A stretch of DNA of 64,000 nt from contig CAZMPO010000007.1 of NCBI GenBank assembly GCA_964568425.1, forward strand, positions 1-64,000, written 5' to 3'. The notes beneath the pieces were generated by a model. It searched no databases, was not told where the DNA came from, and saw only the letters and a list, made by a program, of their open reading frames with translations. A program made the translations under genes and the position numbers. The stretch comes from an uncultured Lachnospiraceae bacterium (lineage in GTDB: Bacteria; Bacillota; Clostridia; Oscillospirales; CAG-272). Shown here one piece after another: positions 32-16,805 of this stretch; position 1 is the stretch's first letter; every line of letters begins with the position of its first letter.

Positions 32-289
32 CTACTCTAAGGGGATTATATCAAAATAGTGATGCTCTTCTCTTTTTTTCATATAATTTGGACATGAAGC
101 CACTAAAATATCTTTCATATCAATTTCAAACGCTATGCTTTTATCGGAAGTCCTTACCACAAGTACCTTTTTACTATAATCATCAATTATGAGAACATAG
201 CACCTATCATCCTCAAAATCATTTTTTGAAGATCTGTGCAAATATGCATGGAATCCGTTATTTAACATATTATTGGTAATAATTGCCAT
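32..289 (-). CDS. hypothetical small protein
   Basis: 85-aa ORF in AT-rich region; no recognisable motif. Confidence 0.25.
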   Translation of the reverse strand: MAIITNNMLNNGFHAYLHRSSKNDFEDDRCYVLIIDDYSKKVLVVRTSDKSIAFEIDMKDILVASCPNYMKKREEHHYFDIIPLE

Positions 290-728: not shown

Positions 729-1109
729 TCATCTTCTGCAGTTATTATCTACTACCTCATAGAAGAATCTTTTCTTTTCGTTTTCTGTTAATCTCTCATA
801 TCCGTATAATAGTATACGGGTTTGTATTTCGTTAACTGTCTTCTTGCCAAGATTACGGATTCGAGACAGTTCCTCTCTTCTTATGCAGTCGATAATGTCA
901 CCGATCGTAAACAATCCGGCACGTTTCAAAGCATTCATCGCTCTTACCGAAAATTCGATGTTATCCACCCCGGTATCGCAAGCCTTTTTGCTAAACGGAA
1001 CATTCACTTTCACACTCTTTCCGAATGCTCCATAAAGTGTGGGGATCAGTCCGTTTCCATTTGCCGATTTGTACAGTTCGATTACAACTTCATCTTTTCT
1101 CATTTGCAT
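729..1109 (-). CDS. RNA polymerase alpha-subunit C-terminal-domain-like (HhH) protein
   Basis: Segment NALKRAGLFTIGDII...ELSRIRNLGKKTVNEI resembles the alpha-CTD helix-hairpin-helix of RpoA; standalone 126 aa. Confidence 0.5.
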   Translation of the reverse strand: MQMRKDEVVIELYKSANGNGLIPTLYGAFGKSVKVNVPFSKKACDTGVDNIEFSVRAMNALKRAGLFTIGDIIDCIRREELSRIRNLGKKTVNEIQTRILLYGYERLTENEKKRFFYEVVDNNCRR

Positions 1110-1123
1110 GCTCTCCTAACATA

Positions 1124-1585
1124 TCATTTTTCGGGGATGATAGATCCTTTAATGACATCGAGAACAGAGTTAGCATTGATTGAGGTGATTCCGGGCACTT
1201 CCTTGTATATCTTAGTTACAAAGTTTCGCATTGTCTTCACGTCGGGTGCAAGACAGATTGCGACTAAATGACAGTTATTACCCGTAGTATGTACGATAGT
1301 CACGGTTTCCGGAGATTCCGCAAATATTCGTTTGCATTCATCAAAGCTATCCGGCTTTGTTTCGATGTTTGTTACAAAGGTCATCGTTTCGGGTGCCGCT
1401 TGCGGATCTATAATGGCTTTATAGCCCTTGATGATCCCTTGGCGTTCCAGAGAGGTAATTCTTGTTTTCACGGCGGTGCGTGAAAGACCGACTCGATCTC
1501 CAATTTCTGTATATCCTATTCTCGCATCTTCGAGCAACAGGTTGATTATTTGATTGTCTATCGCATCAAGACTGTCTATATGCAT
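1124..1585 (-). CDS. Lrp/AsnC family transcriptional regulator
   Basis: N-terminal HTH (LDAIDNQIINLLLEDARIGYTEIGDRVGLSRTAVKTRI) plus C-terminal RAM-like domain, 153 aa. Confidence 0.85.
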   Translation of the reverse strand: MHIDSLDAIDNQIINLLLEDARIGYTEIGDRVGLSRTAVKTRITSLERQGIIKGYKAIIDPQAAPETMTFVTNIETKPDSFDECKRIFAESPETVTIVHTTGNNCHLVAICLAPDVKTMRNFVTKIYKEVPGITSINANSVLDVIKGSIIPEK

Positions 1586-1703
1586 TGCTTACCTCCAACC
1601 GAAACATTGTCATCCAAGTCGGTGCATGCTCCCGACTTCTGTTGACATTTATATTATACCACGATCTTAACGATATTTCAACAGCTGAGCTTGCATTGCG
1701 TAT

Positions 1704-2720
1704 TCATATTGTTGCAAATTGCACATTGTAATCGCTGTCAATATTCGTATTGCAATTAGATGGATCATTGCACCACACTTCTGCTGCCCTCTCACACATT
1801 TTCTCAATATAATCTCTGCGTTTCAACGTATCAAGCCACTCTGTCGGGATGTCATCATAACCGTAGAGCGCACCTGCAAGACCACCCGCAACAGCAGCAA
1901 CAGTATCGGAGTCATCACCGAGATTGACCGCCTTTAATACACAATCTTTATAGTTATCCGTGGTAAGTAGACACCACACCGCCCCTTCAAGAGTATCTAC
2001 CACATAACCTGTGCTTTTGATATCATCGCATTGCAATTCAACAAAACTGTCCGCAAACAATCTTTGATAGTGATGGTACTCGGTACTATTTACATATCGA
2101 CACTTCGCCATGTTCAATGCAAGCTTGATGGATTCTTTGCTTGGTACATCAAGCAAATGAAACAGAATCAGCGCATAGATCTTACAGCAGAGCCTTGAGC
2201 GTTCGTGCGCGTGAGTTAAAGCAGATGCTTTTTCAATTATCGCTTCCCACTCGGATCTTACTTTTCGATTACACCAAGCTATCAAAGCAAACGGATGAAT
2301 GCGCATCAAAGAGCCGTTGCCATTGGAACGTTCTCCCGTTAATCCGCATTCCTCGACGGGCTTGTGATATGCAAAATAGTTGTCGATGGCATAGCTGCAA
2401 GTGTTGCCGACATCGAACATTTCGCCCGTCGGCGTGTACTCGTCATCATAATACCACTCGCCAAACTTAACCATTATATCATCGAAATCCACCTTGCCAC
2501 TCGCAAGGCTATCGAGTGCGGCAAGCGACATACTTGTGTCATCCGACCAAGATCCCGCAGGATAAGGATATGTGCCGTAGCCGACCATATCCGTAACCGG
2601 CTTTGCGGCAAGTTCATCCCTCTCGCAAAACTCTACGGGCACACCGAGTGCATCGCCGATCGCATGACCAAGCATTACGGCTTTTATTTTTTGTTTTATC
2701 TTATTCATACTTACCACCAT
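1704..2720 (-). CDS. ADP-ribosylglycohydrolase family protein (DraG/ARH-like)
   Basis: Motifs GHAIGDALGVPVEF, GSWSDDTSM, GNGSLMR, GDDSDTVAAVAGGLAGALYG typical of the ADP-ribosylglycohydrolase fold; alternative start at 2708. Confidence 0.85.
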   Translation of the reverse strand: MVVSMNKIKQKIKAVMLGHAIGDALGVPVEFCERDELAAKPVTDMVGYGTYPYPAGSWSDDTSMSLAALDSLASGKVDFDDIMVKFGEWYYDDEYTPTGEMFDVGNTCSYAIDNYFAYHKPVEECGLTGERSNGNGSLMRIHPFALIAWCNRKVRSEWEAIIEKASALTHAHERSRLCCKIYALILFHLLDVPSKESIKLALNMAKCRYVNSTEYHHYQRLFADSFVELQCDDIKSTGYVVDTLEGAVWCLLTTDNYKDCVLKAVNLGDDSDTVAAVAGGLAGALYGYDDIPTEWLDTLKRRDYIEKMCERAAEVWCNDPSNCNTNIDSDYNVQFATI

Positions 2721-2956
2721 CTTTTAGGGCAAATCCACGCGAGAAACAGTATGGCACCCACGAATAGAAACTCTAAAATTTGATACAGTACAGCCAAGAT
2801 AAGCACAACTGCAACCGCAGCAACCGTATAGAGCAGAACCTTTTTCAAGGTGCTCCAAAATTTGTTCTTGCGGATAGAGTTATCTGTCTTTCTTTCATTT
2901 GTGTTTATCGCGTTCATTCCGTTGCCCTCTCTTTTCATTTTTATTTTGCAATCCAA
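2711..2956 (-). CDS. small membrane protein (2 TM helices)
   Basis: 81-aa ORF with hydrophobic C-terminal half; overlaps the ARH gene start by 10 nt (coupling). Confidence 0.35.
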   Translation of the reverse strand: MDCKIKMKREGNGMNAINTNERKTDNSIRKNKFWSTLKKVLLYTVAAVAVVLILAVLYQILEFLFVGAILFLAWICPKRWW

Positions 2957-3098
2957 TTATAGCGCGTATTGTGTCCGATAAGCCGAACAGTTACGGTCAA
3001 TTTATTATACCACCTCCATTATTTCGCTTGAAAATTTCGGGGGATTTACAAACCACAAAAAAATTCAATCCATTTGAAAAGTGTGGTATAATATATAT

Positions 3099-3739
3099 TT
3101 AGGCTTTGTCGTCATCTTCCTCGAGATACTTTTCAAGGTCCATCGCATCGGCTTGACAAGCTCTGACCGCTGTGATTGCTTCGCTCATTGCATAATAACT
3201 CCTGCCAACTCCTTCCTTGGTTTGACGGTAATTCGCGGCACGTTCACGGCGAATGCCAATGTTCTCGGCAGTTTCAACGGCATCAATGTTAGCCGCAAGA
3301 AAGATAAACTCCCAACCGTATTTCTCTGTCTGTCGTTTAATTTTTGCCTTGATCTCCGCACTTGAATAGTGGTGGCTTCATTCTCCATTCCATCGGTTGT
3401 AATAATGAAGATGGTATGCTCGGGAACGTCCTCGGGGCGCGCGTACTTATGTATGTTTCCAATATGATGGATAGCACCGCCGATTGCATCGAGAAGTGCC
3501 GTGCAACCGCGCACTTGATAATCGTTTCGTGTCATCGGCTTGATTTCGGATATATCCACTCTGTCGTGGATTACCTCGCTGTAATTATCGAAAAGCACGG
3601 TGGAAACGAAAACCTTGCCTTCCTGTTCCTTCTGATTTTCAATAGTAGAATTGAAGCCGCCGATGGTGTCAGCCTCGAAGCCGGACATAGAGCCGCTTCT
3701 GTCAAGGATAAATACGAGTTCAGTAATGTTGTTTTTCAT
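3099..3739 (-). pseudogene. vWA (von Willebrand factor A) domain protein with apparent frameshift near 3355-3365
   Basis: N-terminal MIDAS motif LVFILDRSGSMSG and ...IFIITTDGMENE. After about 3360 the ORF runs on as low-complexity read-through, while the -1/+1 frame continues with a conserved-looking tail AEIKAKIKRQTEKYGWEFIFLAANIDAVETAENIGIRRERAANY... ending at a TAA around 3099-3101. Confidence 0.6.
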
Positions 3740-3746
3740 AATAAAA

Positions 3747-3796
3747 ACCTCCCTTTGTTTTTGTGCCTTTAGTATAGCACTTTCAAAGGGAGGTTT
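3747..3796 (-). terminator. rho-independent terminator-like hairpin after the island operon
   Basis: CCTCCCTTTG...CAAAGGGAGG stem followed by a T-run on the minus strand; the GGGAGG also serves as the RBS of the vWA gene. Confidence 0.4.
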
Positions 3797-3816
3797 GGTC
3801 GCTTGACGAGGGACTT

Positions 3817-4182
3817 TTATTTAATCAATCTTGTATTCCATTCAGTTTCCTTGAAACCAACAAGTACAAAATCATCACCAATAAGCAACGGACGTTTCAC
3901 AAGCATGCCGTCACTTGCAAGAAGTTTCAATATTTTGTCCTCGGTCATAGTGGAAATCTTATTTTTAAGGTCAAGGGACTTATAGAGCAATCCACTTGTA
4001 TTAAAGAACTTTTTGAGTGGTAATCCGCTTTTCTTATGCCATTCCGTTAACTCATCGAGTGTGGGATTATCGAGCTTAATATCTCTAAACTCATATTCAA
4101 TTTGATTATCGTCGAGCCACTTTCTTGCCTTTTGACAAGTGGTACACTTGGTGTAACATATAAATTTAATCATAGTTCTCAA
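3817..4182 (-). CDS. ArsC/Spx family protein (thioredoxin-fold, CxxC)
   Basis: N-terminal CTTC redox motif and overall ArsC/Spx/YffB-like length and pattern; ATGA overlap with the upstream Macro gene. Confidence 0.7.
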   Translation of the reverse strand: MRTMIKFICYTKCTTCQKARKWLDDNQIEYEFRDIKLDNPTLDELTEWHKKSGLPLKKFFNTSGLLYKSLDLKNKISTMTEDKILKLLASDGMLVKRPLLIGDDFVLVGFKETEWNTRLIK

Positions 4183-5207
4183 ACTCCTAACAGTTGTTGA
4201 TCAAACTCAAACAACGCTTCATTGATTTCAAAAATATCATAATTGCCGTTATGGATAAAGTATCTAATAATCTTATCAAACACCTTGCTCCTTGACAAAG
4301 TAAATCCTGCGGTTGCAAGCAATTCTTGTGTTGTATCCATATCAAGCTGCAAGGAAATTGCAAAGGCAATCACGGTTTGCTTTGACGGCTTGTAGTCTTT
4401 ATTGCTCTTGATTTTAGAGAAGGTTCGCTTGTCCACGTTTGCCTTCTTGTAGCATTCTACATCGGTCATACCGCTTTCGCCAATGAGGTCAAAAAGCATT
4501 TTCCCGAAGCTTCTGTCCATCTGCTTCATATACTCACGTAAGGATTTACCCGCAGCGGAACTCGTTTCCCGTTTACGCGGCATCATAGCATCGGCACACA
4601 TAGGTGCTTGGATACACTTTGCCATTGGCATCTCATCTACGCTACTGTCAAACGCCTCATAGAAATCTTCATCGTGCTCGTCTACGTATTCATCATTGAT
4701 AAACTCTTGAATATCACTAAAGAGCTTCTGGCTGAAGGAATACGATTCCTTATCGAACACGCAAAGATAAACTGTCAATTCGTGGTCAAACAGAAATTCC
4801 GTAATCGTTTGAATAGCGAATTTGAGGACTTGATCCTTCGGGTATCCGTAAACGCCCGAACTAATCAGAGGGAAAGCAACCGAATGGCAACCGCTTTTCA
4901 CAGCAAGCTTTAACGATTCAATATAGCAAGATCGTAATATAATACTCTCGCCAACCAAACCGCCGCGCCATACGGGACCGGAAGTATGAATCACGTACTT
5001 GCAGGGCAAGCCGTATGCACCCGACAACTTTGCTTGACCAAGCCCAAGCGGAGCAAGCTTGGCGCATTCCGCGTCAAGCTCTGCTCCTGCGATGGTATGT
5101 ATAGCGAGATCTACGCCACTATAACCGACCATTTCTTCATTGGTCGTGTTTACAATGGCATCCACTCGCATTTTCGTGATGTCTTGTCTGATAATTTGTA
5201 GTGGCAA
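4179..5207 (-). CDS. Macro domain protein (ADP-ribose binding/hydrolysing) with C-terminal XRE-like HTH domain
   Basis: Macro motifs VDAIVNTTNEEM, GVDLAIH, YVIHTSGPVW, AFPLISSGVYGYP; C-terminal ~120 aa with HTH-like segment MTDVECYKKANVDKRTFSKIKSN. Confidence 0.8.
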   Translation of the reverse strand: MPLQIIRQDITKMRVDAIVNTTNEEMVGYSGVDLAIHTIAGAELDAECAKLAPLGLGQAKLSGAYGLPCKYVIHTSGPVWRGGLVGESIILRSCYIESLKLAVKSGCHSVAFPLISSGVYGYPKDQVLKFAIQTITEFLFDHELTVYLCVFDKESYSFSQKLFSDIQEFINDEYVDEHDEDFYEAFDSSVDEMPMAKCIQAPMCADAMMPRKRETSSAAGKSLREYMKQMDRSFGKMLFDLIGESGMTDVECYKKANVDKRTFSKIKSNKDYKPSKQTVIAFAISLQLDMDTTQELLATAGFTLSRSKVFDKIIRYFIHNGNYDIFEINEALFEFDQQLLGV

Positions 5208-5217
5208 TCAATTCACC

Positions 5218-8200
5218 TCACTCTTTGTCGGATTTCAAAATTTCTTGTATCTCCGCTATATGCGTTTGTCCGAAAATAATATCGTCATTTCCAATTCTAA
5301 CGACAATAGGGTGATTTACATTGGCATCAGTGCGCAAAATTTCATTATGGAACTGTTCTCGAATGCTATCATTCTCGCGAAGCTCCTCAAAATGCTTGCT
5401 ACATACTAAGCATAGCGCAATGCCGCACTCGTGCCAATAAAACTTAGGTGCTTTAAGTATATTGTTGACTTCCATATACTTAACATCTTTGGCTTCTCGG
5501 CACATTTGGCAAACGCAATATCCGGCTTCGGGTTGGTATCTTCTTAATGCAAGAGCACGAATATCGTGATTGTCAATCAAAAATTCGTTGCCTCTACCAT
5601 TTTGCGGCACTCCATAAGAAACAATACGTTCAACCGGTCGCTTTTCGATTTTGATACAATTGTTTAGAACATCTTGCATATGCCGTCTAAAATTGAACTG
5701 ATTGGGAATGGGCTGATTAAGTACGCTTTTATCATAATCAATCGTTGTCGCCGTTAATCCACCCAAACGATATTCCGTAATCAGCTCGGGAGCTATGAAG
5801 CCCGCTCTTTTACATCTCTCCAAAATCTCAAAGCCGTTTTGCATATGCTCATCTTGCAATGATTCAATATCTTCATCGGTCAAATCATCTTCGACATCCA
5901 AATCATCGTAATGAACCTCGGTAATGTTTTTGCATCTTATAAATCGCGCAAAGGCTTCGCATTCCTTGCTTGCAATATGAGCAGGAAGCAGTTCTCCGAA
6001 GAAGTATCCTTCTTGCTCGTTGCTTACATATACCTTTCCACGTCGAATTTCGCCAAGCTCATTCTTAAGCGGGATGACATTGGCATTTGCAAAAAGGTCA
6101 TTTTGACAACCGAAAAGCATCTGCTTGTTACCGCTAAATTCAGCCAACAAATAGGCATACAATCGAGCATTCTCCATTGTTCTGATGTTTTCCATTAGCT
6201 TTTCACGATAATTTGCTAATTCAATCTGTCCTGTCAGCTCACTTATATCCTCGCCAAATATACCTTCGCATACCTTTTTCTCTAACAAGTGCGTAGCAAG
6301 AATATAGCAATTTGAAGATGAAATCGTACAGTTAGGCTTTATATACAGTCGATCCTCACATTCATCCCAACTAACATATCGGATAACACCTTTTTGCTCT
6401 GCATAAACAGGAACGATCTCTAACTCGCGCAGCATAGATTGCTCATTATCCAAATCATCGCTATGCTCATACAAGTAAGAGAACATCAATTTCCTAAATT
6501 CATCGTCGGTAATGTTTGCCTCGTAAACGCGTCTTAAAGCGCATACTACGCCGTGAACATTCATTACACCAACGCTTAATGCATTCAATTCAGCCTCATA
6601 TTGCTTTTCCTTTGCCTTGACTATTTCGCTCAACGACCTTCCTATATTCTGATTACCATCTAAACAGTAGCTTAACACATCGGGAATGCGAACCACTCGT
6701 GTATCGGAAGGTTTAGCAAGAATCGTTGAATTATAAGTTTGTAAGAATGTAGAGCGTCTGAGCTTTGAAAGCAGATCAATTTTATTCAAGCTATCCTCAG
6801 AGAAAATATCCGTCGAATATGTAGTGCCTTCTCTCTTGATATGCAAGAAGCGAAGCACGTCAATACCTTCGCTCTTTGCCAAGGTTTCGATAGCTGTTTG
6901 GATTGCAACATATACCTCAGCAGTTACATAATCATTCCAACGATTATTTATTAAATGATCGCGCGAGGTTGTCAACTCAAACGGAGCATCGATAATCATA
7001 GGAACTCTTATTTTCACCTGCGTAGGCAATCCCGCATACAAATAGCAGTTGTTGGCTTCTTTTCCCGATTGGATATAGCAAACTACCTTCTGCTTTTTGT
7101 CTATACGACGCTGCTGATTTTCGCGTTCAGAAACAATAGAATTATCCGATACCTCAAAGCAATGTGTTACGATCTTGTATTCATAGACCTTATCATTCAC
7201 CTTGATACATCGAATGTTTCCGTCATCTTCGATGCGAATTTCAAAATCACCCAACTTTAAGTAGCGCAACTTTCGTAAACAAAGACACAAGCGCAGAACC
7301 TTTTCCTCCGTAAAGAAGTCCTTTTTTAACGGCTTTTTCAATTCAAAGGTCATTCTCGTGCCTTGGAATGGCTCTTTTTTATCAGAGGGCAACACGGGAA
7401 TGGTCGGTGCTTTATCAGCCAACATAAAACGAAAATGTCCGCTATGAATATAGACCTTGCTTGCAACCGCAAATACCGCTTTGAATCCAACGCCCTTTTC
7501 TCCGATTTCAGGCATTTTTCTGTCAGAAACAAGTATTTGCTTTTTCGTGGATTCTCCAATTGACGTAATTGCTCTAACGTTTTCACGAGTAAATCCTATT
7601 TCATTGTATCGAGTGAATATTTTAGAAAAGTCATCGGATACAGTTAAAACAAAACTTGGCTTAACACCTTCTGCATAAGAGCAGTCATCCGCATTTTGTA
7701 AAAGCTCATTTATGTACCTTTCCGAGTCCATTCCCGCATCATTGATCAGATTGATATACCGCCTATACGCTTCGGGACCTAATGCACTTTGAATCGTCTT
7801 TCTTGTTGCTCGAAGCAACTTCATATACTCAAAAGGCTCCATATCCTCATTCGCGGCATTCAACTGATTTGACGCATTTTTGAATCGCAGGTTCATCGAC
7901 AAGGTACAATTCTTGTCTATCAGTTCGCAGAACTCCGACAATGAAGTAATTCTATGCTGTGCACTTAAAAATAGAATATTATCACACGCAAAGAAAAAGC
8001 GCTCGTTTTCTATCGGCAAATAGCAACACCTATAACCGATTCTTCTAAAGTAAATCCCCGCATTTTTGTTAAAGTCAGATTCATCAAGTCCTAATTCGCC
8101 ATTTTCAACGAATCGAACATCTTGAATATCAAGAGATTGAATATTTGCTTGAAGCGAAGGCAACTGCATCTTTTTGATCTGTTCGGTAAAGTGCTTTTGA

Positions 8201-9942
8201 AAAGCCGACAAGCATTTTTCATATTTTGCAAATACCGTTATCTGCTCAGCACTAAACGTTTTCTTTCCCATAGCTTCAATCATCTTATCAAACGAAAACG
8301 ATTCTATGTTTGATAAAACATCAAGGATAGCATCCGAATCCGTAAGTACAGACATTGCTCGGTTAAACAACCGCACATTGACATCTGAAATTGTACTTAT
8401 ACCGGGATTTTTATTTCTTGATCGAGCGTCAGGAAGAAATAGCTCGCGCGTTTCTCCAAGCAACAAATATGTGCTCTCGGGTTGCGGTACATCTTCATTT
8501 GATCGGAACATAAACACCTTTTCAGCCGGCAAGAAATTGTTCTCTACCGTATAGAAAATCGGCAATTCGAAAAGTATTTCGCCCTTAAAAATGTTTTGTT
8601 GCAAACAAATGATCGTGTCCACATCTGCTTCAAATATGTACTTGCTTTTGTAAGGTAGATAGTTAATTATATTCTCCTTTACCTTTCGAGAGAAATCCAT
8701 ATAGGATTCTTTTAGCATAGTAGCAAAGGACGAGCAACTATGCTTAAACCAAGCATTATTGCTTTGGGAATCAACAAACTCTCTTGAGCCGCCAAGTTTA
8801 AACGGGATATGGCAAGCCATAGGCATAGGAACCTTTATCTGCGTAGGCAAAAACGAGTATAACGAACCCATTTTTATAGAATTTTCGTCATACAAAAAAT
8901 CCACAGAGGGAAAAACGATCTGCATATACATTTTCTTTTCTGCAAATGCTGTTTTTGCTCCATAACGCGATACACACATATCTCTGTTATAGATAATCTG
9001 CTTGGTATATCTTGTGCAATCAATTTCTTGGATTATGGGCTTGTCATTTTGACTGTGATAATCGCGCAAATCAACCGACAAATGAACGTCGGTTTCTATT
9101 TGCAATTCCGATCCAAGAACAGGAGCACTTCTTGACACCTTAAATGTTAAACTGCGTAAAGAATCGAAATACAAATGCAGTTTGGTAAGCTTATTTAAGA
9201 ACAGTAGCGGGTTCTGATTAAACAAAGATTCCTTATTGTGATATTTACGAACAAATTCGTCATAAATTCCCTTAACCTTCATTGGTTCAACAAAAAGCGT
9301 TAAGCGCGTTCCGCTAACTTCTTCAAAGTTTTCGTACGCAGGCTCGGGAATGGTAAAATTGTTTTTATACAATTCAAATGAGAATTTACCGCTTTGAATC
9401 AGAACTTTATCCGCTACGCCAAAAACTGATTTGAAACCTATGCCTTTTTCACCGATTTCAACCTTATCCGAGGAAACATTTTTAGCCGCCTCGGCAATAC
9501 CCGTAATGGCAAAGACATTAAATGGAGTAAATCCCGTTTCGTTATATGTCAGAACTATTTTTCCGTTATTGTAATCAGTTTGAACGTCCAATTCAACACG
9601 GCTGTGATCTGCATAATCGCAGTCATCTACGTTTTGAATCAATTCAAACAAAAACCTTAACGGCGTAGAATATACACCATCTTCACCAACCGAAAGAAGG
9701 GATTCAAGCAAGGCGGGATAATTATCACCCTTTAATTTGTCATCCTCTGCAAGAGAGGTGCGAAACAACTTCAAGAGTTCAACATACATCTTATGCTCGT
9801 CAATGCTCGCCAAATCACCAACCGAAAAAGCGCGTAGTGCTTCACGCAAATCGGTCTTTTGGTGATTGTTCATACTTCGAGAGTCGTAATTATGATATTT
9901 TGTTTTTAAGTCGAGTATTTTACTCATTTTCTTACCTCTCAA
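5218..9942 (-). CDS. large protein with two sacsin/NOV-like GHKL (HSP90-like) ATPase modules and Cys-rich C-terminal domain (possibly NOV_C/DUF3883-like)
   Basis: Two Bergerat-fold motif sets: ELIQNVDDCDY...GEKGIGFKSVFGV and ELLQNADDCSY...GEKGVGFKAVFAV. C-terminus has CVCQMC...CGIALCLVC. Start overlaps the upstream helicase gene by 11 nt. Confidence 0.75.
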   Translation of the reverse strand: MRGKKMSKILDLKTKYHNYDSRSMNNHQKTDLREALRAFSVGDLASIDEHKMYVELLKLFRTSLAEDDKLKGDNYPALLESLLSVGEDGVYSTPLRFLFELIQNVDDCDYADHSRVELDVQTDYNNGKIVLTYNETGFTPFNVFAITGIAEAAKNVSSDKVEIGEKGIGFKSVFGVADKVLIQSGKFSFELYKNNFTIPEPAYENFEEVSGTRLTLFVEPMKVKGIYDEFVRKYHNKESLFNQNPLLFLNKLTKLHLYFDSLRSLTFKVSRSAPVLGSELQIETDVHLSVDLRDYHSQNDKPIIQEIDCTRYTKQIIYNRDMCVSRYGAKTAFAEKKMYMQIVFPSVDFLYDENSIKMGSLYSFLPTQIKVPMPMACHIPFKLGGSREFVDSQSNNAWFKHSCSSFATMLKESYMDFSRKVKENIINYLPYKSKYIFEADVDTIICLQQNIFKGEILFELPIFYTVENNFLPAEKVFMFRSNEDVPQPESTYLLLGETRELFLPDARSRNKNPGISTISDVNVRLFNRAMSVLTDSDAILDVLSNIESFSFDKMIEAMGKKTFSAEQITVFAKYEKCLSAFQKHFTEQIKKMQLPSLQANIQSLDIQDVRFVENGELGLDESDFNKNAGIYFRRIGYRCCYLPIENERFFFACDNILFLSAQHRITSLSEFCELIDKNCTLSMNLRFKNASNQLNAANEDMEPFEYMKLLRATRKTIQSALGPEAYRRYINLINDAGMDSERYINELLQNADDCSYAEGVKPSFVLTVSDDFSKIFTRYNEIGFTRENVRAITSIGESTKKQILVSDRKMPEIGEKGVGFKAVFAVASKVYIHSGHFRFMLADKAPTIPVLPSDKKEPFQGTRMTFELKKPLKKDFFTEEKVLRLCLCLRKLRYLKLGDFEIRIEDDGNIRCIKVNDKVYEYKIVTHCFEVSDNSIVSERENQQRRIDKKQKVVCYIQSGKEANNCYLYAGLPTQVKIRVPMIIDAPFELTTSRDHLINNRWNDYVTAEVYVAIQTAIETLAKSEGIDVLRFLHIKREGTTYSTDIFSEDSLNKIDLLSKLRRSTFLQTYNSTILAKPSDTRVVRIPDVLSYCLDGNQNIGRSLSEIVKAKEKQYEAELNALSVGVMNVHGVVCALRRVYEANITDDEFRKLMFSYLYEHSDDLDNEQSMLRELEIVPVYAEQKGVIRYVSWDECEDRLYIKPNCTISSSNCYILATHLLEKKVCEGIFGEDISELTGQIELANYREKLMENIRTMENARLYAYLLAEFSGNKQMLFGCQNDLFANANVIPLKNELGEIRRGKVYVSNEQEGYFFGELLPAHIASKECEAFARFIRCKNITEVHYDDLDVEDDLTDEDIESLQDEHMQNGFEILERCKRAGFIAPELITEYRLGGLTATTIDYDKSVLNQPIPNQFNFRRHMQDVLNNCIKIEKRPVERIVSYGVPQNGRGNEFLIDNHDIRALALRRYQPEAGYCVCQMCREAKDVKYMEVNNILKAPKFYWHECGIALCLVCSKHFEELRENDSIREQFHNEILRTDANVNHPIVVRIGNDDIIFGQTHIAEIQEILKSDKE

Positions 9943-12900
9943 TAGTCAGAACACCGTTTGCAATCAACGATGTATGAATATCTGCTTGTCCTGCTTTTTT
10001 CTTGATGGAGGCTACCTTTGCCTCGTATGCTTCGGTTGCACCGTCAAGCATAGATTGGTACATACGAATCAAGTTCATTTCTACCGCATTGTCAATCTGT
10101 GTTTCAAGACTTACCTTGCGATTGATATAGTTGTTGCGGATGCTTTCAAGCTTATAGTTCGCCATTGTATCAACCGACTCTTGGTGCTTCTTGCGCTCCG
10201 CAAACAAAGCAACGATCTGTTTTTCTTCAAGCTTGCCCCAAGCACTCGCATTGATGCTTGGTATCGTACGTGCTTCTTCTGCAGTTTGGAGAATTTCTGT
10301 CAATTCCGCTGCAACCACATCATTTTCACATACTGGTACAATCTTGAAACATGGATTGAGTCCTATGTAGTTCCAAGCATAAACCGAGAAATGATATGTG
10401 CCCGCCGGCAAAAAATCGGAACTGTATCTTAAATTGATATACGAGGTTTGATTTGTGGCGTAATACTGCGCAGCTTGTCTTACAAGAGGATGTACTGCCG
10501 TAATAAAAAACGCTTTTCTATCTTTTTCTGCGGCTTCCGAGTCAAACGTAATCGCATGATTGGGGTTTTTATCCTTCAAATAGTTATCCCAATCCCTCTT
10601 TGTAGAGGAACGAATGGTAGAAAGCTTCTTGAAATCTTCTCTCAGTGCTTCACGGGCAAGCTTATTCAAACGCAGAGTTTTTATCTCGGATTCGCCCAAA
10701 ATGTAATTACCAACGCCAAGACGGTCATTCAAGTATCTTGTAACCAAATACTGCAATCCCGTCGGACTCAACCAAGGGCTTTCCGCTTCTTGGATTTCTT
10801 GGGAAGTGTGGTATCCCGAAAGGTCAAAGCCAAACAGTTCCTTTTCCTCGTCCTCGAGCTTGTTAAGTTCTTGCACACGTCTGACCTCATTATCAGCCAT
10901 CTGTTCAAGCTTGCTTCTGCGTTCTTCATCGGTAAGCGTAGCATTTACCGCAATCTTTTCGACCTGTGCACCGATCTCGCTGAGTATTTCTTCACATTCA
11001 CCGATGCTCTTTTCAAAAATACCAATACGGAGCAGGCAACGCTCATAAATATCCGCATCAACGGTGTTATTCGTGATTACGTTGTAAATGTTTACAACCT
11101 CACTCTTTTGTCCACGACGGTCAATTCTACCGATTCTTTGTTCAATGCGCATCGGGTTCCATGGCAAATCATAGTTAATCATCATATCACAGAACTGATA
11201 GTCAAGACCTTCCGAGCCAACTTCGGTAAAGAGCAGAATATCAATGGCATTTTCATCTTCCTTGGGTAACTCAAATTGCCTACGAAGCTCGTAACGCACA
11301 TCATCCTTAACACTACCGTCAATTTGTTCCACGCGCAATCCTTCATCACGTAGTTTCTTCTTCAAATATGCAAGCGTATGGCGGAAGGTGCTGAACAAAA
11401 TGATTTTATTATTTTCGGCGGTTTGCTTTTCCTTGATGATTTCAAGCACGCTATCGAATTTCGGATCTTCCTCGGGGAGCGAATCTGCCAATTCAAGCAC
11501 GTGACTTGCCATTGCCGAAAGAGTGGAACTATCGTAGTCGCTCAACTTTGCATTATCTACATCGTCCTCCGAGTCGGCTTCAAGCTGCACCAAGCGTCTT
11601 TCAAGAATATCACGCACATAAGGAGCAAGACCAAAGATACAGCTTGCCGCTTGTCTGCGTATAGTGCTCATCATAAAGGGCACAGAGCATACATTGTGAA
11701 GCGTTGAAAGTGCAGCATACTCGAAAGCGAGCAATTCGTTGTGCAATTTTGCCTGCTCGGGCGTGAAATCGCTTGCGATAGTATGCGTTCTTCTGACACA
11801 GAAATCTTGAATATCACGACGCCTTGTGCGGTTTAACATCGTTGCAAAGCCGTGAAGCGACTCTACATCAGAAATCAGCTTTACGCGATCTTCGCGCGAC
11901 AAGTTTTCCTCTGAAAGCTTTTTCAACACTTCTGCATACAAGGGGTTCTTTGCAATTACATTTACACCCCACTGAGTCTGCAATACGCCTTTGAGTTCCT
12001 CGGATGCCGCAAGCTGCCATCCTTCCGCCGCACCACGAATAATATGAGAGCAACGTGAAATATACTCGTTTGGTTTAGACATTGTAACAAACGTGTCTTT
12101 ATCAATTACAACGTCGGGGCGCAATACGTTGAGTAGCGTAAAGAGGTCATTATCACCCGTCTGAAGCGGCGTAGCAGTAAGCATAACGACCGCGTCCGCG
12201 TGCTCACAGAAATACTTAACACACTTGTAGGCAAACGCCTTTTCTTTATCCATACTTCCGTTACGGATATGGTGCGCTTCATCAATGATGACTAAATCAA
12301 AGTGAGGGGCGGGATCTAAGTCAAATAAACCGTACGATTTTCCTTTTTTACCTTCTTCGCCTTGATAGACTCGGCTATCCAAAATAGAATAAGGAATAAT
12401 GGTTTTGTTATAGCGAATAGGCCATTCTCCGTCCCTATCTGTATCCGAAATAATTTGACGAAGCTCTTGTCCCGTAACGGGAACAAATTCCTCATCAAAA
12501 CGCTTCATTTCATTTTCCCATTTGCGTTCCGTTACAAGAGGCTTGGGGCAAATGATAAGCACGTTTTCAAGCTCGTTACGAGCCTCCAACTCTTTGATAA
12601 TCAAGCCTGCTTCAATCGTTTTACCGACACCAACGCTATCCGCAATCAAAATGCGAGGTTCGTCAGCCTTGATAAGCTTCAGCGCAGGTCTGAACTGATA
12701 CGGCACAAAATCAATTCTTGCGGCATTCAAAGAATAAAGATTGCCGGCAGAGGGATTGTTGATTTGATATGCCGTCAAATAACTTTGCAGAGTAGCCAAA
12801 TCAACCCAATTATAGTTTTGGCGTTCTTCAACCAATGCAATCTGTCCCGAATAAAAGGTCTTGGTTTCGCCGTTTACGAAAACTTCGTATTTTTTGATTT

Positions 12901-13522
12901 CGCCAAGATCTGTTACCGAGCATACCATTCCCTTAACATCGGGGTTTCCAATCAAATACACCTTGCTCATAGCCGCAATGTCATCCGTGTTGACGGTTTC
13001 CGTTGAAACGGGTTCCGTAATAGACTCATTTTCTTGCACCGATTCAATTTGGATATTCGAGCCTTGTACCGCTTGCATAAAACGGTCTACATCGTCAAGC
13101 ACATTCAAAGGAGCTTCAAGCCAAGAAAGAAAGGCGTGAAGCGTATTGATGTCATAAACAACGGTATCCTTATCTGCCATTCCGCTACTATAATGCGCCC
13201 AACGATTTCTGACCTTCTGCATTTCTCTTACGCACTCTCGGTCTTTCGTGGGAAGATATGCAAAGTTGCGCATAGCATACCACGACTTATCCGTAATTCT
13301 GAGAAGGGCAGCCAAATCAAAATCCGAAAGATTGCTGTATTGGTTGTTCTCGGCAATCTCTCGCTGATTATAACTCAAATTAGATATGACACATTCCTGC
13401 CACCAATTCTCGGACACCTTGGGAAGCATTTTATCAAGCCAAGATTCCAATAGCTTTGCGGCAGTATGTAAAAATTCATTTATTTTTCCAACAACTTCAA
13501 TATTGTGCATAACGCTCTCCAA
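9932..13522 (-). CDS. Swt1-like HEPN domain fused to SNF2-family (SWI2/SNF2) helicase
   Basis: N-terminal ~140 aa with HEPN Rx4H motif (KVRNRWAHYS). Helicase motifs GVGKTIEAGLI (I), DLVIIDEAHHIRN (II), MLTATPLQ (III), LLFTEVGSEGLDYQ and QRIGRIDRRGQ (V-VI). Confidence 0.85.
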   Translation of the reverse strand: MESVMHNIEVVGKINEFLHTAAKLLESWLDKMLPKVSENWWQECVISNLSYNQREIAENNQYSNLSDFDLAALLRITDKSWYAMRNFAYLPTKDRECVREMQKVRNRWAHYSSGMADKDTVVYDINTLHAFLSWLEAPLNVLDDVDRFMQAVQGSNIQIESVQENESITEPVSTETVNTDDIAAMSKVYLIGNPDVKGMVCSVTDLGEIKKYEVFVNGETKTFYSGQIALVEERQNYNWVDLATLQSYLTAYQINNPSAGNLYSLNAARIDFVPYQFRPALKLIKADEPRILIADSVGVGKTIEAGLIIKELEARNELENVLIICPKPLVTERKWENEMKRFDEEFVPVTGQELRQIISDTDRDGEWPIRYNKTIIPYSILDSRVYQGEEGKKGKSYGLFDLDPAPHFDLVIIDEAHHIRNGSMDKEKAFAYKCVKYFCEHADAVVMLTATPLQTGDNDLFTLLNVLRPDVVIDKDTFVTMSKPNEYISRCSHIIRGAAEGWQLAASEELKGVLQTQWGVNVIAKNPLYAEVLKKLSEENLSREDRVKLISDVESLHGFATMLNRTRRRDIQDFCVRRTHTIASDFTPEQAKLHNELLAFEYAALSTLHNVCSVPFMMSTIRRQAASCIFGLAPYVRDILERRLVQLEADSEDDVDNAKLSDYDSSTLSAMASHVLELADSLPEEDPKFDSVLEIIKEKQTAENNKIILFSTFRHTLAYLKKKLRDEGLRVEQIDGSVKDDVRYELRRQFELPKEDENAIDILLFTEVGSEGLDYQFCDMMINYDLPWNPMRIEQRIGRIDRRGQKSEVVNIYNVITNNTVDADIYERCLLRIGIFEKSIGECEEILSEIGAQVEKIAVNATLTDEERRSKLEQMADNEVRRVQELNKLEDEEKELFGFDLSGYHTSQEIQEAESPWLSPTGLQYLVTRYLNDRLGVGNYILGESEIKTLRLNKLAREALREDFKKLSTIRSSTKRDWDNYLKDKNPNHAITFDSEAAEKDRKAFFITAVHPLVRQAAQYYATNQTSYINLRYSSDFLPAGTYHFSVYAWNYIGLNPCFKIVPVCENDVVAAELTEILQTAEEARTIPSINASAWGKLEEKQIVALFAERKKHQESVDTMANYKLESIRNNYINRKVSLETQIDNAVEMNLIRMYQSMLDGATEAYEAKVASIKKKAGQADIHTSLIANGVLTIER

Positions 13523-13530
13523 TCAAAAGA

Positions 13531-13719
13531 TTATTTCTCAGCTGCATTTCCTGCTTTTACCCAAGCAACAACCTCGGACACCTTAAATTTCCAAAGACGT
13601 CCAACCTTTGAAGCAGGCATATTACGCTTTGCGATCCATACGAGCACGGTATCGCGGCTAACGCCGAGGTGCTCCATGATCTCTTTGAGTGAATACCATC
13701 TTTCCGTTTCGTTAATCAT
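13531..13719 (-). CDS. AlpA/excisionase-family HTH DNA-binding protein
   Basis: 62-aa protein [37 protein letters not shown] typical of the MerR-superfamily HTH_17 (Xis/AlpA); sits 9 nt upstream of the helicase gene. Confidence 0.7.
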
Positions 13720-13749
13720 TTCAATTCTCCTTCGGCAAAAAGATACAAT

Positions 13750-13778
13750 TATTTACTCTATTATACTATAATATCATC
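13750..13778 (-). promoter_or_regulatory. consensus sigma-A-type promoter for the island operon
   Basis: Minus-strand TTGACA, 17-nt spacer, TATAAT; about 30 nt upstream of an AAGGAG RBS and the ATG at 13719. Confidence 0.5.
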
Positions 13779-14154
13779 AATTTGTCAATCAGTTATGATA
13801 GCTTATCGTCGGTTTATAACGGTTTATTCGTAAATGGAAAAGACAGCGATTTTTTCTCCGCCGAGTGCTCATTCAGTTAAGTTTTCAATAGCGATTCGCA
13901 TACCGAGTTTAAGAGCACACTTGAAGATATGAACTGGTTCTTCTATCCTTTCGATATACAATATACACCAAATAGCATGAATTGTCAAGAGGCTGAGAGG
14001 ATTTTTTAAAATTAATTATGGATTTTCCCTTAATTTGTAAAAGTACACCTTTCAAAACGGTAGAAAATGGTTTTGGGTACGCTTTGAACATACATAGAGT
14101 TTTATCTTCAAGAATTGAACGCAAAACAAGCGATAAACGGGAGGAATGCTGAAA

Positions 14155-15453
14155 ATGGCTATTGTTGAGGTTATAAAATACAATGGTAAACCCGATGTAT
14201 TTGCGTGGAAGTACCCTAGCGAGGAACTTGGAACATGGACGCAACTGATTGTAAATGAATCTCAAGAAGCAGTTCTTGTAAAAAGCGGCAATGTTCTCGA
14301 TGTGTTTGGTAGCGGACGACATACGCTCGATACAGCAAACATTCCCATTCTGAGCAAAATAATCAATCTTCCGTTTGGAGGAAGAAGTCCGTTTACAGCC
14401 GAGGTATGGTACATCAATAAGGGCTACAATCTAGATATTAAATGGGGAACACCCACTCCAATTCAAATTCAAGACCCCAAATATGGTATTTTTGCTCCGG
14501 TCTGCTCAAATGGTGCATTCGGCATACATGTCTCGGACTCGAAAAAATTTTTAATAAAGCTCGTGACAACGATGCCAACATTCGATACCAATACCATTAC
14601 AAAATACTTCAGAAGCCTTTTTGTAACAAAAGTAAAGGATGCGATCTCTGCGTATTTGGTACATAAGCAGATAAGCATTTTGGAAATAAACGCATACATT
14701 GACGAGCTGTCTCAGCACATGAAGGAAAGAATTCAGCCTGCAATGGATGATTATGGTATCGAGCTCATATCCTTCTATGTAAACGAGATAAGCGTGCCCG
14801 AAGACGATACAGCTGTCCAGAAACTGAAAGATGCCCTTTCAAAGAGAGCGGAGATGAATATTATTGGCTATAGTTATCAGCAAGAACGTTCTTTTGATAC
14901 CCTCGAAGGTGCCGCGAAGAACAGCGGTTCAGCCGGAGCTCCGCTTATGAGTGCTGGACTGGGAATTGGAATGGGATTTGGCATGGGACGAGGCGTTGGA
15001 AAAGGATTTGGTAACATGGCACAAGAAATTCAAGTAAACAGCTCCAATGAAAGCACTAAGGAATGCCCAAAATGCTACACGCAGATCCAGCAAAATCAAA
15101 GATTTTGCGGATACTGCGGATATGATACCGAAAAGAAGTCAAAGAAATCTGCCTCTTTGATCTGTTCTTTTTGCAATCACATAATAACTGAGACAACCAA
15201 ATTTTGCCCCGAATGTGGAAGAAAGATCGACCATTGCCCAAATTGCGGAAGTGATATGGCAGATAACGCAACAAAGTGCAACAGTTGCGGCTATGAAAAA
15301 CTGCCGATTTGTCCCAAGTGTGGTGCCGAAATCTCAAGCAAATCTAAATTCTGTCCCGAATGCGGGGCTGTTCTGACAAAATGTTGCCCGAAATGCAATT
15401 CACCAATTGATGGTGTCAAGAAATTCTGCCCTGAATGCGGCGAAAAACTGTAA
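14155..15453 (+). CDS. SPFH/band-7 domain protein (COG4260-like) with five C-terminal zinc-ribbon repeats
   Basis: N-terminal MAIVEVIKYNGKPDVFAWKYP... SPFH-like core; C-terminal repeats CPKC/CPEC...CxxC x5; the ORF could also start at 14146. Confidence 0.65.
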   Translation: MAIVEVIKYNGKPDVFAWKYPSEELGTWTQLIVNESQEAVLVKSGNVLDVFGSGRHTLDTANIPILSKIINLPFGGRSPFTAEVWYINKGYNLDIKWGTPTPIQIQDPKYGIFAPVCSNGAFGIHVSDSKKFLIKLVTTMPTFDTNTITKYFRSLFVTKVKDAISAYLVHKQISILEINAYIDELSQHMKERIQPAMDDYGIELISFYVNEISVPEDDTAVQKLKDALSKRAEMNIIGYSYQQERSFDTLEGAAKNSGSAGAPLMSAGLGIGMGFGMGRGVGKGFGNMAQEIQVNSSNESTKECPKCYTQIQQNQRFCGYCGYDTEKKSKKSASLICSFCNHIITETTKFCPECGRKIDHCPNCGSDMADNATKCNSCGYEKLPICPKCGAEISSKSKFCPECGAVLTKCCPKCNSPIDGVKKFCPECGEKL

Positions 15454-15467
15454 AGGAGCATGTACAA

Positions 15468-16166
15468 ATGAGCAGAAGAATTAAAATGTTTTTGGCAAGC
15501 GGTGTTACCGTGCTTCTTGCCACGGTGATCATCTCACTGATCTGTATAGATGAGTGGCACGGGTTAACGAATTGGGCGTTTGTCACGATGTTGTGGTCAG
15601 AAATTGTATTGTTCGGTGGTTCGATCTTTATAGAATGGTTTGCGGAAAGATCCAAACAGATTTTTGCAAGGTCACTGCTTTATTCTGTTATTATAACCTA
15701 TTCAACGATCAACTTTTTGATTTCCGTTTTTTACATGATATTGTTGAAAGAAGCGGCTACCTCTTTTACCGTTATGCAAGTGATCATGTTAGCAAGTGCA
15801 TCGATAGGCATTGCCGTTTCGCTGGGGGTGAGCAAAGGCGTACAAAAATCAAACATTCGCACCGCAAAGGCGGTTGCAAATACCGAGGCGATGATTGAAC
15901 GACTGAACAAATTAGCTCTTCGTCCGGAATGTGAGCATTTTGTCTCATCCCTAAAAAAACTGAGTGATGATTTGCGATTTACTGACATTTCAAAAGTCGT
16001 TGCAGAGGACAGTAAAATTTCCAATGCTATCTCTGTCATCGAAATTGAGACCGACAGTACAGACGGATTTGACAATAAAAAAATCGAAGCAGCGTTGATT
16101 CGCCTTAATTCGCTGATCTTACAAAGAAAAGTTTCGGTAAGCACAGCCAATAAAGGTAAAATTTAA
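15468..16166 (+). CDS. membrane protein (3-4 TM helices) of unknown function
   Basis: AGGAG RBS then ATG at 15468; hydrophobic N-terminal half and coiled/charged C-terminal half. Confidence 0.45.
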   Translation: MSRRIKMFLASGVTVLLATVIISLICIDEWHGLTNWAFVTMLWSEIVLFGGSIFIEWFAERSKQIFARSLLYSVIITYSTINFLISVFYMILLKEAATSFTVMQVIMLASASIGIAVSLGVSKGVQKSNIRTAKAVANTEAMIERLNKLALRPECEHFVSSLKKLSDDLRFTDISKVVAEDSKISNAISVIEIETDSTDGFDNKKIEAALIRLNSLILQRKVSVSTANKGKI

Positions 16167-16190
16167 TTTCATTTAATCAGGAGAAACGAT

Positions 16191-16805
16191 ATGAACAAAT
16201 CCAAAGTAGCAATAGCATTAACTAAAACAGTCAGCGTCGTGCAAATGACGATCGGCGTTTTTTTGGTATTCATGTTTAGCATTTGTGCAATTGTATGTTT
16301 ATTAGACAAAGAATTTATGGAAGATTCGGGCGTAAGTTTCTTGATATGCTGCTTAGTTATAGTTGCGTTTGCCGTTTGGCTTATAATTCTTTCCGCGAAA
16401 AAAGCTGCGTTAATAAACAAATTCAAAAAATATGTTGCGGCTGTTTCCAACGACCCTAACGGCTATATTCCCGACATCGCCGCTTCATTAGGTGCATCCG
16501 AAAACGAAGTTAAGAAAAACCTTGAACTAATGATCAAGAAAAACTTTTTTGCAAATGCGTTTGTTGATCAAAATTCTAATTGCATTGTGATTGCGAACAG
16601 ACAAAGTTTCGCTGCTAATAAAGCCTCCCAACCGCAGACACAGTCAGCCGCATATGCTCCACCCCGAGTTGCTTTGCAGACAGCAGAGATGGTAACCATC
16701 AAGTGTAAAGGCTGCGGCGGCATTAACACAATACCAAAAGGTGTAGTTGTTGAGTGTGATTATTGCGGGTCCTCTATTAAAGGTGAGCAAAAACAAGTTT
16801 TTTAA
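16191..16805 (+). CDS. membrane protein with C-terminal zinc ribbon
   Basis: Two TM helices N-terminal; C-terminal CKGCGG...CDYCG zinc ribbon. Confidence 0.45.
   Translation: MNKSKVAIALTKTVSVVQMTIGVFLVFMFSICAIVCLLDKEFMEDSGVSFLICCLVIVAFAVWLIILSAKKAALINKFKKYVAAVSNDPNGYIPDIAASLGASENEVKKNLELMIKKNFFANAFVDQNSNCIVIANRQSFAANKASQPQTQSAAYAPPRVALQTAEMVTIKCKGCGGINTIPKGVVVECDYCGSSIKGEQKQVF

Follow-up and report, generated by a model that had tools for sequence, protein, structure and literature searches.

A predicted mobile two-gene defence module pairing a HEPN-bearing SNF2 translocase with a double sacsin-type GHKL ATPase in an uncultured Lachnospiraceae bacterium

Two large neighbouring genes on the minus strand of a 64,000-nucleotide stretch of DNA from an uncultured Lachnospiraceae bacterium (contig CAZMPO010000007.1, positions 1 to 64,000; hereafter the window) encode a SNF2 protein with an N-terminal HEPN domain and a GHKL ATPase with two sacsin-type modules. 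We find that this pair is a co-inherited, translationally coupled and horizontally mobile two-gene module whose NTPase sites are all under purifying selection, and that it is homologous to defence proteins and embedded in changing surroundings where defence and mobile-element genes abound. From these features we predict, as the likely role of the pair, defence against phages or mobile elements. The fuller proposal, a self-contained mobile module acting against phages or other invading DNA, is the one we favour overall with somewhat more caution, and the specific mechanism set out below, with HEPN as effector, is tentative and somewhat less likely than not. Residue numbers refer to the 1192-residue form of the SNF2 protein and to the 1574-residue open reading frame (ORF) of the GHKL protein.

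Judged by its domains, the first gene encodes an SNF2 translocase of the RapA/DrmD-like kind, headed by a HEPN domain of Swt1 type. A preliminary description of this DNA had read the HEPN motif RNRWAH and the SNF2 motifs from the translation, and Pfam recovers both parts as HEPN_Swt1, SNF2-rel_dom and Helicase_C, the HEPN match (PF18731) scoring 39.5 bits against a cut-off of 27.5. The helicase part contains GVGKT at residue 294, DEAHH at 410, TATP and QRIGRIDRRG; close relatives conserve the helicase motifs to 90% or more, and distant ones keep most of them. From the full-length AlphaFold2 model we used solely the HEPN segment, a helical bundle with a predicted local distance difference test score (pLDDT) of about 80–88, and the comparison with RapA. 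The HEPN arginine and histidine are both retained in 31 of the 37 close homologues with an alignable N-terminus. The HEPN fold and the Rx4-6H motif that mark Swt1-like RNases are thus both found in the protein, for which RNase activity is predicted.

Profile searches with the helicase give DrmD as the best PADLOC match (PDLC02623, 360 bits, profile positions 72–870 of 1040), in an alignment that begins at residue 238, so that the HEPN domain lies outside the matched part. In NCBIfam, DrmD NF038317 reaches 302 bits against an equivalog cut-off of 610, NF038318 reaches 144 against 950, and RapA NF003426 reaches 206 against 576. Among solved structures, RapA likewise comes nearest in sequence (1.7e-35), and Foldseek aligns the full-length helicase model, which is of low confidence, with RapA 6bog (E=1.8e-19) over about 1086 columns, covering most of the protein. 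A small beta-rich region precedes the ATPase core in this model.

The second gene encodes the two sacsin-type ATPase modules that had been recognised earlier by their motifs, and two Pfam SACS matches together with HATPase_c_3 bear this out; NCBIfam P_loop_sacsin likewise exceeds its cut-off of 50 (104 bits). The two modules represent an internal duplication (45% identity over 132 residues, E=2e-25). The Bergerat core of module 1 (residues 96–186) contains ELIQNVDD (100–107), YNETGF and GEKGIGFKS (164–172), and module 2 has ELLQNADD (746–753), YNEIGF and GEKGVGFKA (814–822). In 16 diverse homologues, down to 38% identity, ExxxNxxD, YNExGF and GEKGxGFK are invariant in both heads, including E100/N104/D107, G164-xx-G167-x-G169 and their module-2 equivalents. 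Bergerat motifs I–III appear intact in both heads, consistent with an active ATPase. By sequence, Hsp90 N-domains are the only solved relatives of the heads, and the NCBIfam HtpG model scores 34 bits against an equivalog cut-off of 371. Both modules match PADLOC profiles of TmtA, the protein of the Tiamat system, over profile positions 28–557 of 1655 and 40–502 of 1302, corresponding to the N-terminal third (32–36%).

The C-terminal 390 residues of the GHKL protein have a confidently predicted fold (pLDDT 90). The Cys-rich C-terminus mentioned in the preliminary description is indeed present near the end of the protein as a CxCxxC...CxxC cluster; its nature, a degenerate HNH domain, had been overlooked. 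Foldseek alone returned no significant match for the C-terminal domain, and a profile built from 18 diverse relatives matches the HNH domains of McrA (E=1.3e-5), TagI, IscB and Cap5. The catalytic residues are replaced, with EVNNI in place of EVHHV of McrA and CLVCS in place of CPNCH, and N1493 and S1515 are invariant within the clade. Since neither the histidine that acts as general base nor the metal-binding one behind CxxC is kept, we read the tail as an HNH-derived zinc ribbon, which is most likely no nuclease. A Pfam search of the last 500 residues gave no NOV_C/DUF3883 match even at E≤0.1, and HEPN is the sole intact predicted nuclease of the pair. The GHKL partner diverges faster than the motor (about 38% versus about 70% identity in the same loci) and is most variable in the helical regions after each head, which fits a role as sensor or as target of inhibitors.

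Full-length homologues of both large proteins abound in gut and rumen Clostridia and Negativicutes, the closest named record being an uncultured Ruminococcus metagenome-assembled genome (locus L009, 94% identity). Co-occurrence of the two genes across genomes had been proposed as a check, and it holds. Of 57 fetched loci that contain a close homologue of the GHKL gene, 50 have the HEPN-SNF2 gene next to it, and the remaining seven are all short of sequence on at least one side; where at least 3.7 kb is available on both sides, adjacency is complete (23/23), down to 33% identity of the GHKL protein. The two genes mostly lie −14 to +10 nt apart. The order of the pair is reversed in L033 and L035, and L021 keeps the pair with a helicase gene inserted between its members. 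In the reverse direction, all three abundant SNF2 homologue clusters have a SACS-domain gene directly downstream.

Similarly, single-head relatives with 25–30% identity also have an SNF2 gene directly upstream; their hosts include Bacillus, Lysinibacillus, Paenibacillus, Clostridium and Proteiniclasticum as well as Chlorobiaceae, delta-proteobacteria and Methanosarcinales. Solo relatives without an SNF2 neighbour, which resemble canonical Tiamat, differ in their tails: six of nine carry NOV_C/DUF3883 and two of nine a fused superfamily 1 (SF1) helicase in Pfam scans, whereas NOV_C was found in none of ten SNF2-linked GHKL proteins tested, which share the HNH-like tail instead. We used Pfam scans here instead of phmmer and hmmsearch, which with the NOV_C region of L075 recovered three solo proteins only. 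The two fusions (L079:7896-12953 and L082:7935-13910) join a solo sacsin-type GHKL C-terminally to an Upf1-like SF1 helicase (AAA_11/AAA_12) and have no NOV_C; they are a third way of combining a sacsin-type head with a helicase. The idea that relatives without HEPN could have an active HNH in its place was rejected, since at least one catalytic His is missing there too. Among SNF2-linked proteins only L084, where HEPN is present, may keep both HNH catalytic His.

Two further gene arrangements were observed around relatives of the pair. In L085–L090 (e.g., L085:1558-15043), a cassette borne by integrative and conjugative elements (ICEs), and very abundant in gut metagenomes, runs from HTH_26, PC4-like, Type III methyltransferase and Res-like helicase (YagJ domain) genes to a HEPN-SNF2 gene 64–66% identical to that of the window, then to a single-head TmtA-like ATPase (1130–1168 residues) and a WYL regulator or SF1 helicase. 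Type IV secretion system (T4SS) coupling-protein or relaxase genes flank the cassette, which looks like a four-to-six-gene relative of the window system. In addition, an SF1 (RecD/Pif1-like) helicase of about 1230 residues that matches the PADLOC candidate PDC-S68 adjoins the pair in several deeply diverged loci (L021:12724-16443, L023:613-4335, L024:672-4358, L088:14138-17582 and L084:13249-16794) and in L021 sits between the pair genes. The window lacks this helicase, which may be an optional third member of the system or a separate system often found beside it.

The surroundings of the pair were described in a census of 25 non-redundant double-head loci with 122 flanking ORFs, where no family occurs in more than five loci. 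Recurrent families include Type I restriction-modification (R-M), PDC-S68, Macro, AbiEii, resolvases, integrases, Mob_Pre and transposases; individual loci have Type I R-M, GmrSD, relaxases or prophage fragments next to the pair, and flanks elsewhere include WYL regulators. The pair is rare on viral contigs, with three loci in IMG/VR, and the phage collection gave no match to it. The plasmid collection returned merely distant DUF3883/HNH proteins, in Sulfuricurvum and haloarchaea, and megablast against E. coli genomes found no match to the locus. Among 1.84 billion representatives, the family of the C-terminal domain accounts for 369 clusters at 50% identity.

Several points weigh against a self-contained module with HEPN as its effector. 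The HEPN arginine and histidine are degenerate in 6 of the 37 close homologues (L023, L028, L031, L040, L041 and L056), as in VCNNWSY, VCNSWVN and VENRWLY at SNF2 residues ~100–106, while their helicase and GHKL partner look intact. This implies that some lineages have lost the RNase activity, which would therefore be dispensable there, or another effector exists. Among distant SNF2–GHKL pairs, HEPN is detectable only in L072 and L084, and some distant pairs lie directly behind Type III-like Mod/Res genes, a hint that restriction systems can use the pair as a helper. Beyond the HEPN domain the SNF2 model is of low quality (mean pLDDT 64), the flank census is descriptive and comes with no statistical enrichment over genome background, and the literature gives no mechanism for TmtA.

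The best-surviving alternative, though an unlikely one, develops the hint from Mod/Res: the pair would be an accessory or second-line module of an R-M system, its SNF2 motor and GHKL clamp helping a Type III-like Mod/Res in the way proposed for MORC/paraMORC–SNF2 operons, and the copy in the window would be orphaned, cooperating with R-M encoded elsewhere or having no function left. The most abundant SNF2 relatives do lie in the ICE cassette with its Type III methyltransferase and Res-like helicase, homologues of Type III Mod and/or Res directly precede the pair in three loci from Bacillus and Lysinibacillus (L064, L068 and L071), and operons of GHKL, SNF2 and HNH genes were placed in R-M systems by Iyer et al. 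2008 (PMC2292703). However, no methyltransferase or Res family is conserved in the 25 loci of the double-head clade to which the window belongs (N6_Mtase in 2 of 122 flanking ORFs; Type I R-M in three loci), tblastn with Mod/Res queries from L064 and L085 found no match in the window or in the double-module loci, and the clade of the window bears an intact nuclease domain of its own, HEPN.

That the module serves its carrier element, by excluding rival plasmids or ICEs, by addiction-like maintenance or by countering host defences, is less probable still. The pair often stands beside relaxases, T4SS coupling proteins, Mob_Pre, serine recombinases and transposases, and its rarity on viral contigs and absence from the phage collection would agree with such a role. 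ICEs commonly carry defence systems, however, so that such a context fits both readings; the proteins to which the pair is homologous, TmtA and DrmD, are anti-phage; and in many loci (e.g., L005) the pair neighbours R-M or Abi genes while the flank that was fetched shows no called transfer gene.

A housekeeping function, with RapA-like recycling of RNA polymerase and an Hsp90/sacsin-like chaperone and no part in conflict, we regard as very improbable. It would draw on RapA as the closest solved SNF2 relative, on the alignment of the GHKL heads with Hsp90 N-domains and on the chaperone role of eukaryotic sacsin (PMC3710099), but the equivalog scores given above for RapA and HtpG are far too low, the family is small and patchily distributed, the pair lies in an AT-rich island, its flanks are variable and mobile, and HEPN and HNH-derived domains are typical of conflict systems. 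The profile searches that had been suggested as a check accordingly give no housekeeping placement, RapA and HtpG both staying below cut-off, and do reveal kinship with a named family, the radiation around TmtA, at partial coverage. Equally improbable, and already strongly disfavoured, are two independent single-gene systems side by side, Tiamat TmtA and a DrmD-like helicase remnant, as the separate PADLOC assignments of the two genes and the single-gene nature ascribed to Tiamat might suggest, given the adjacency in all fully flanked loci and in relatives at 25–30% identity in Bacilli, delta-proteobacteria and Methanosarcinales, junctions of 0–10 nt, and the absence of NOV_C from the tested SNF2-linked GHKL proteins while most solo ones have it.

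For the favoured two-gene defence module, we propose the following mechanism. GHKL ATPases work by ATP-driven head dimerisation, and HEPN RNases require dimerisation. The two proteins would form a complex in which the GHKL heads close on each other upon ATP binding, here within one chain, while single-head relatives would dimerise; such closure may be likened to the head dimers of Hsp90, MutL and MORC. DNA or a phage-derived cue might be bound by the inactive HNH finger together with the variable helical parts as the SNF2 motor tracks along double-stranded DNA, and recognition of an invader would bring HEPN domains together into an active RNase. HEPN is taken as the effector because it is the sole intact predicted nuclease. 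It would cut phage or host RNA and halt infection, probably with growth arrest of the abortive or dormancy type. Local transcription control, outside the conserved machine, could be provided by the small helix-turn-helix gene HTH_17 and the consensus promoter described below.

A more speculative version, which we hold to be improbable, starts from the resemblance of the helicase to RapA over nearly its whole length. RapA docks at the exit channel of RNA polymerase, and HEPN could therefore ride the polymerase and cleave nascent transcripts as a transcription-coupled immune RNase, with the double GHKL clamp and the dead HNH as DNA-reader licensing cutting only on foreign or aberrant DNA. If true, this would be the first mechanism for Tiamat-family ATPases, and bacteria would have a counterpart to the RNA surveillance of the eukaryotic nucleus in which the HEPN domain of Swt1 acts.

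Table 1. Features of the locus, in window positions, with the evidence for each
Feature	Position	Strand	Length or evidence
HEPN-SNF2 gene (most likely start)	9932..13510	(-)	1192 aa
Swt1-type HEPN domain, residues 21-116	13163..13450	(-)	Pfam PF18731 7.9e-10
HEPN Rx4H motif RNRWAH, residues 101-106	13193..13210	(-)	Read in translation
SNF2 ATPase core	11111..12652	(-)	SNF2-rel_dom residues 287-591, Helicase_C 684-800 (Pfam)
Double sacsin-type GHKL ATPase gene (most likely start)	5218..9927	(-)	1569 aa
GHKL module 1, residues 79-582	8197..9708	(-)	PADLOC TmtA PDLC03966 215 bits; Pfam SACS 3e-15
GHKL module 2, residues 739-1179	6406..7728	(-)	PADLOC TmtA PDLC03972 215 bits; NCBIfam P_loop_sacsin 104 bits
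C-terminal region of GHKL protein, residues 1185-1574	5221..6390	(-)	Helical domain, then HNH-fold zinc ribbon ~5221..5535
ORF, small HTH protein	13531..13719	(-)	62 aa, ORF call
ORF, HEPN-SNF2	9932..13522	(-)	1196 aa, by ORF caller (TTG 13522)
ORF, double-GHKL	5218..9942	(-)	1574 aa, by ORF caller (TTG 9942)
Promoter, consensus sigma-70-type	13760..13788	(-)	TTGACA 13788-13783, 17 nt, TATAAT 13765-13760; read directly
Macro-domain protein, C-terminal HTH-like region	4179..5207	(-)	Pfam Macro 1e-34
ArsC/Spx-family protein	3817..4182	(-)	Pfam ArsC 2.7e-16; 4-nt overlap with macro gene

The three minus-strand ORFs of the preliminary description are all present, with 62, 1196 and 1574 residues (Table 1), and so are all the motifs quoted there. 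The SNF2 gene most likely starts at ATG 13510 behind the ribosome-binding site (RBS) GGAGAG, which gives 1192 residues, a length in line with its homologues (1191–1195), and the GHKL gene at ATG 9927 behind the RBS GAGAGG, which gives 1569 residues as in P0001 and L009. With these revised starts the junctions become gaps of about 20 nt and 4 nt; the tight coupling claimed earlier is therefore preserved, while the 9-nt gap and 11-nt overlap give way to these likelier values. The textbook promoter TTGACA-17-TATAAT proved to be the sole 12/12 consensus match in the 14.4 kb from 1 to 14400, and a second promoter-like match (11/12) lies at 13988..13960. The locus does lie in an AT-rich island, as had been noted, with a GC fraction of about 0.40 from 1 to ~17000 versus about 0.52 in the rest of the window; the left end of this island falls outside the window. 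Scans of the window for tRNA and Rfam families gave no match, hence no integration-site clue.

The transcript probably spans five genes: HTH, SNF2, GHKL, macro and ArsC/Spx. The macro gene has a TTG start 10 nt past the GHKL stop, its own RBS (GAGGTGA) and a terminator-free junction; it is probably co-transcribed with the pair as a facultative neighbour outside the core. The ArsC/Spx gene, which is without conserved linkage to the pair, is probably the end of the same transcript.

The small gene at the head of the operon, an AlpA-like HTH in the preliminary description, encodes a protein of the HTH_17/excisionase family (Pfam HTH_17 5.6e-13; NCBIfam "excise" domain at 46 bits, over its cut-off). 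Its place as a member of the system, claimed in the same description, is not upheld: among related loci, homologues are found only in L009, the 94% identical relative, and in L008, where the gene belongs to another operon. We thus dropped the three-gene operon for a two-gene core, because a search across the related loci found no conserved small upstream gene. The HTH_17 protein is probably a lineage-specific operon regulator; in L048, a WYL/WCX regulator occupies the same position. The L008 copy (L008:13259-15214), 74% identical and downstream of the pair, heads an operon that begins with a PAPS-reductase/DndC-like protein of 571 residues, which suggests that this small gene can move between defence cassettes as their leader or regulator.

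Neighbours of the operon in the window include Macro, ArsC, ADP-ribosylglycohydrolase, AsnC and SPFH by Pfam. The ADP-ribosylglycohydrolase gene (1704..2720, minus strand) lies 1.1 kb beyond the ArsC/Spx gene, and macro homologues occur near the pair in L009, L023 and L036 (3/25 non-redundant loci), above chance by a rough estimate. An accessory or counter-counter-defence role of such ADP-ribose-related genes is possible. Divergent from the operon, at 14146..16805 on the plus strand, an SPFH/Band-7 protein of 435 residues with five C-terminal zinc ribbons is followed by two membrane proteins of 243 and 204 residues without Pfam match, the second ending in CxxC...CxxC; these three genes, inside the AT-rich island, may form another accessory or defence-like module. 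A 184-residue ORF at 3185..3739 (minus strand) has the von Willebrand factor A (vWA)-type metal ion-dependent adhesion site (MIDAS) motif DRSGSM, no Pfam match and an odd C-terminus, and is probably the remnant of a truncated or frameshifted vWA gene. Also in the island, on the minus strand, a stand-alone 126-residue protein with the RNA_pol_A_CTD fold, an unusual small RpoA-CTD paralogue, lies beside an Lrp/AsnC regulator (729..1109 and 1124..1585).

In sum, the Tiamat-type ATPase has a sister radiation in which NOV_C is gone and an SNF2 gene stands next door, often with HEPN. Exchanging a cis-encoded nuclease for a trans-acting one offers a testable handle on how sacsin-type GHKL ATPases link their use of ATP to the activation of a nuclease. 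The duplicated head may be a covalent pseudo-dimer, which would make it a natural experiment on GHKL dimerisation, and it recalls human sacsin with its repeated modules. Clostridia of the human and animal gut often carry the family, which has close relatives on conjugative elements and may therefore affect phage and plasmid dynamics in the gut. Built from modules that specialists have already tied to defence, the pair provides a clean, widespread and tractable handle on the Tiamat mechanism.

Comparison with known systems begins with the motor. RapA (HepA) is its closest relative of solved structure by sequence and fold, but E. coli RapA has neither HEPN nor a GHKL partner and is a housekeeping core gene, and the sub-cut-off score (206 versus 576), the AT-rich island and the patchy distribution set the window protein outside that family. 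DrmD, the SNF2 protein of class 1 DISARM, is the best PADLOC and NCBIfam match and shares the RapA-like ATPase core; the window helicase differs in falling below the equivalog cut-off and in a HEPN domain outside the matched part of the profile. No drmA, drmB (DUF1998), drmC (PLD) or drmMI/methyltransferase gene was found in the window or among the recurrent flank families of the 25 loci.

Gao_Hhe is said to be a single-gene system that combines HEPN, helicase and Vsr endonuclease. Swt1/Abi2-family HEPN domains fused to a helicase are also found in defence proteins of the MTES_1575 type (PMC3710099, Tables 1 and 2). Compared by description, Gao_Hhe and MTES_1575 differ from the window pair in uniting an SF1-type helicase and Vsr in one polypeptide, with no SNF2 or GHKL partner. 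As to MADS, the 62-residue HTH protein scores 56 bits on MAD1 against a cut-off of 80, and no mad family matched the GHKL protein or appeared among the best 25 families listed for the SNF2 protein. In that system MAD6-8 are mandatory, and MAD1 is an accessory "widespread regulator" whose deletion has little effect on defence (10.1101/2023.03.30.534895).

Operons of MORC/paraMORC GHKL, SWI2/SNF2 and HNH genes were predicted in silico as R-M-like by Iyer, Abhiman & Aravind in 2008 (PMC2292703), where sacsin-type proteins go unmentioned. They resemble the window pair in that GHKL occurs together with a helicase of SFII/SNF2 type and a nuclease domain of HNH type, in neighbourhoods that are mobile and linked to R-M. 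The window GHKL is, however, of the sacsin/TmtA type, its HNH is fused to it and looks catalytically dead, and a HEPN domain is carried on the helicase.

Eukaryotic sacsin likewise unites repeated Hsp90-like ATPase modules and HEPN in one functional unit, its HEPN being of the HEPN-T family (PF05168) and C-terminal in cis (PMC3710099, Table 1). In the window, HEPN is Swt1-type (PF18731) and on a separate SNF2 protein, and sacsin adds ubiquitin-like and DnaJ domains and acts as a chaperone. The parallel drawn in the preliminary description therefore stands as a resemblance of architecture only, because the HEPN families differ (HEPN-T versus Swt1); we regard the likeness as convergent or modular and do not claim orthology.

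The closest relative overall is Tiamat (TmtA), reportedly validated as a single-gene anti-phage system by Millman and colleagues in 2022. The name Tiamat is absent from the preprint 10.1101/2022.05.11.491447, and the domain description of Tiamat is drawn here from PADLOC (models PDLC03964-03972) and Pfam, from bioRxiv 2024.10.26.620412 and from general background. The pair had earlier been assigned to no named system, which holds for DISARM, Druantia, Zorya, Hachiman and Gabija; what was missed is the match of both modules to TmtA in PADLOC, each at 215 bits. Our search of the available literature found no publication on a pair of HEPN-SNF2 and sacsin-type GHKL proteins. TmtA and the window protein share a sacsin/NO VEIN-type GHKL head followed by about 400 residues, a length of about 1500 residues and an occurrence in defence islands. 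However, the window protein covers 32–36% of any TmtA profile, whereas a bona fide TmtA in L075 scores 754 bits over positions 23-1649 of 1655; it has two heads versus one; it ends in a degenerate HNH in place of the NOV_C/DUF3883 PD-(D/E)XK nuclease; and its relatives are paired with an SNF2 gene in all 23 fully flanked loci, a synteny that argues against a single-gene organisation. Annotation tools might label it as Tiamat; by its profile matches it lies within the radiation around TmtA and is not a canonical TmtA. Together with its SNF2 motor, onto which the nuclease would have moved as HEPN, this Tiamat-related GHKL protein probably makes up an undescribed variant of an established type of phage defence.

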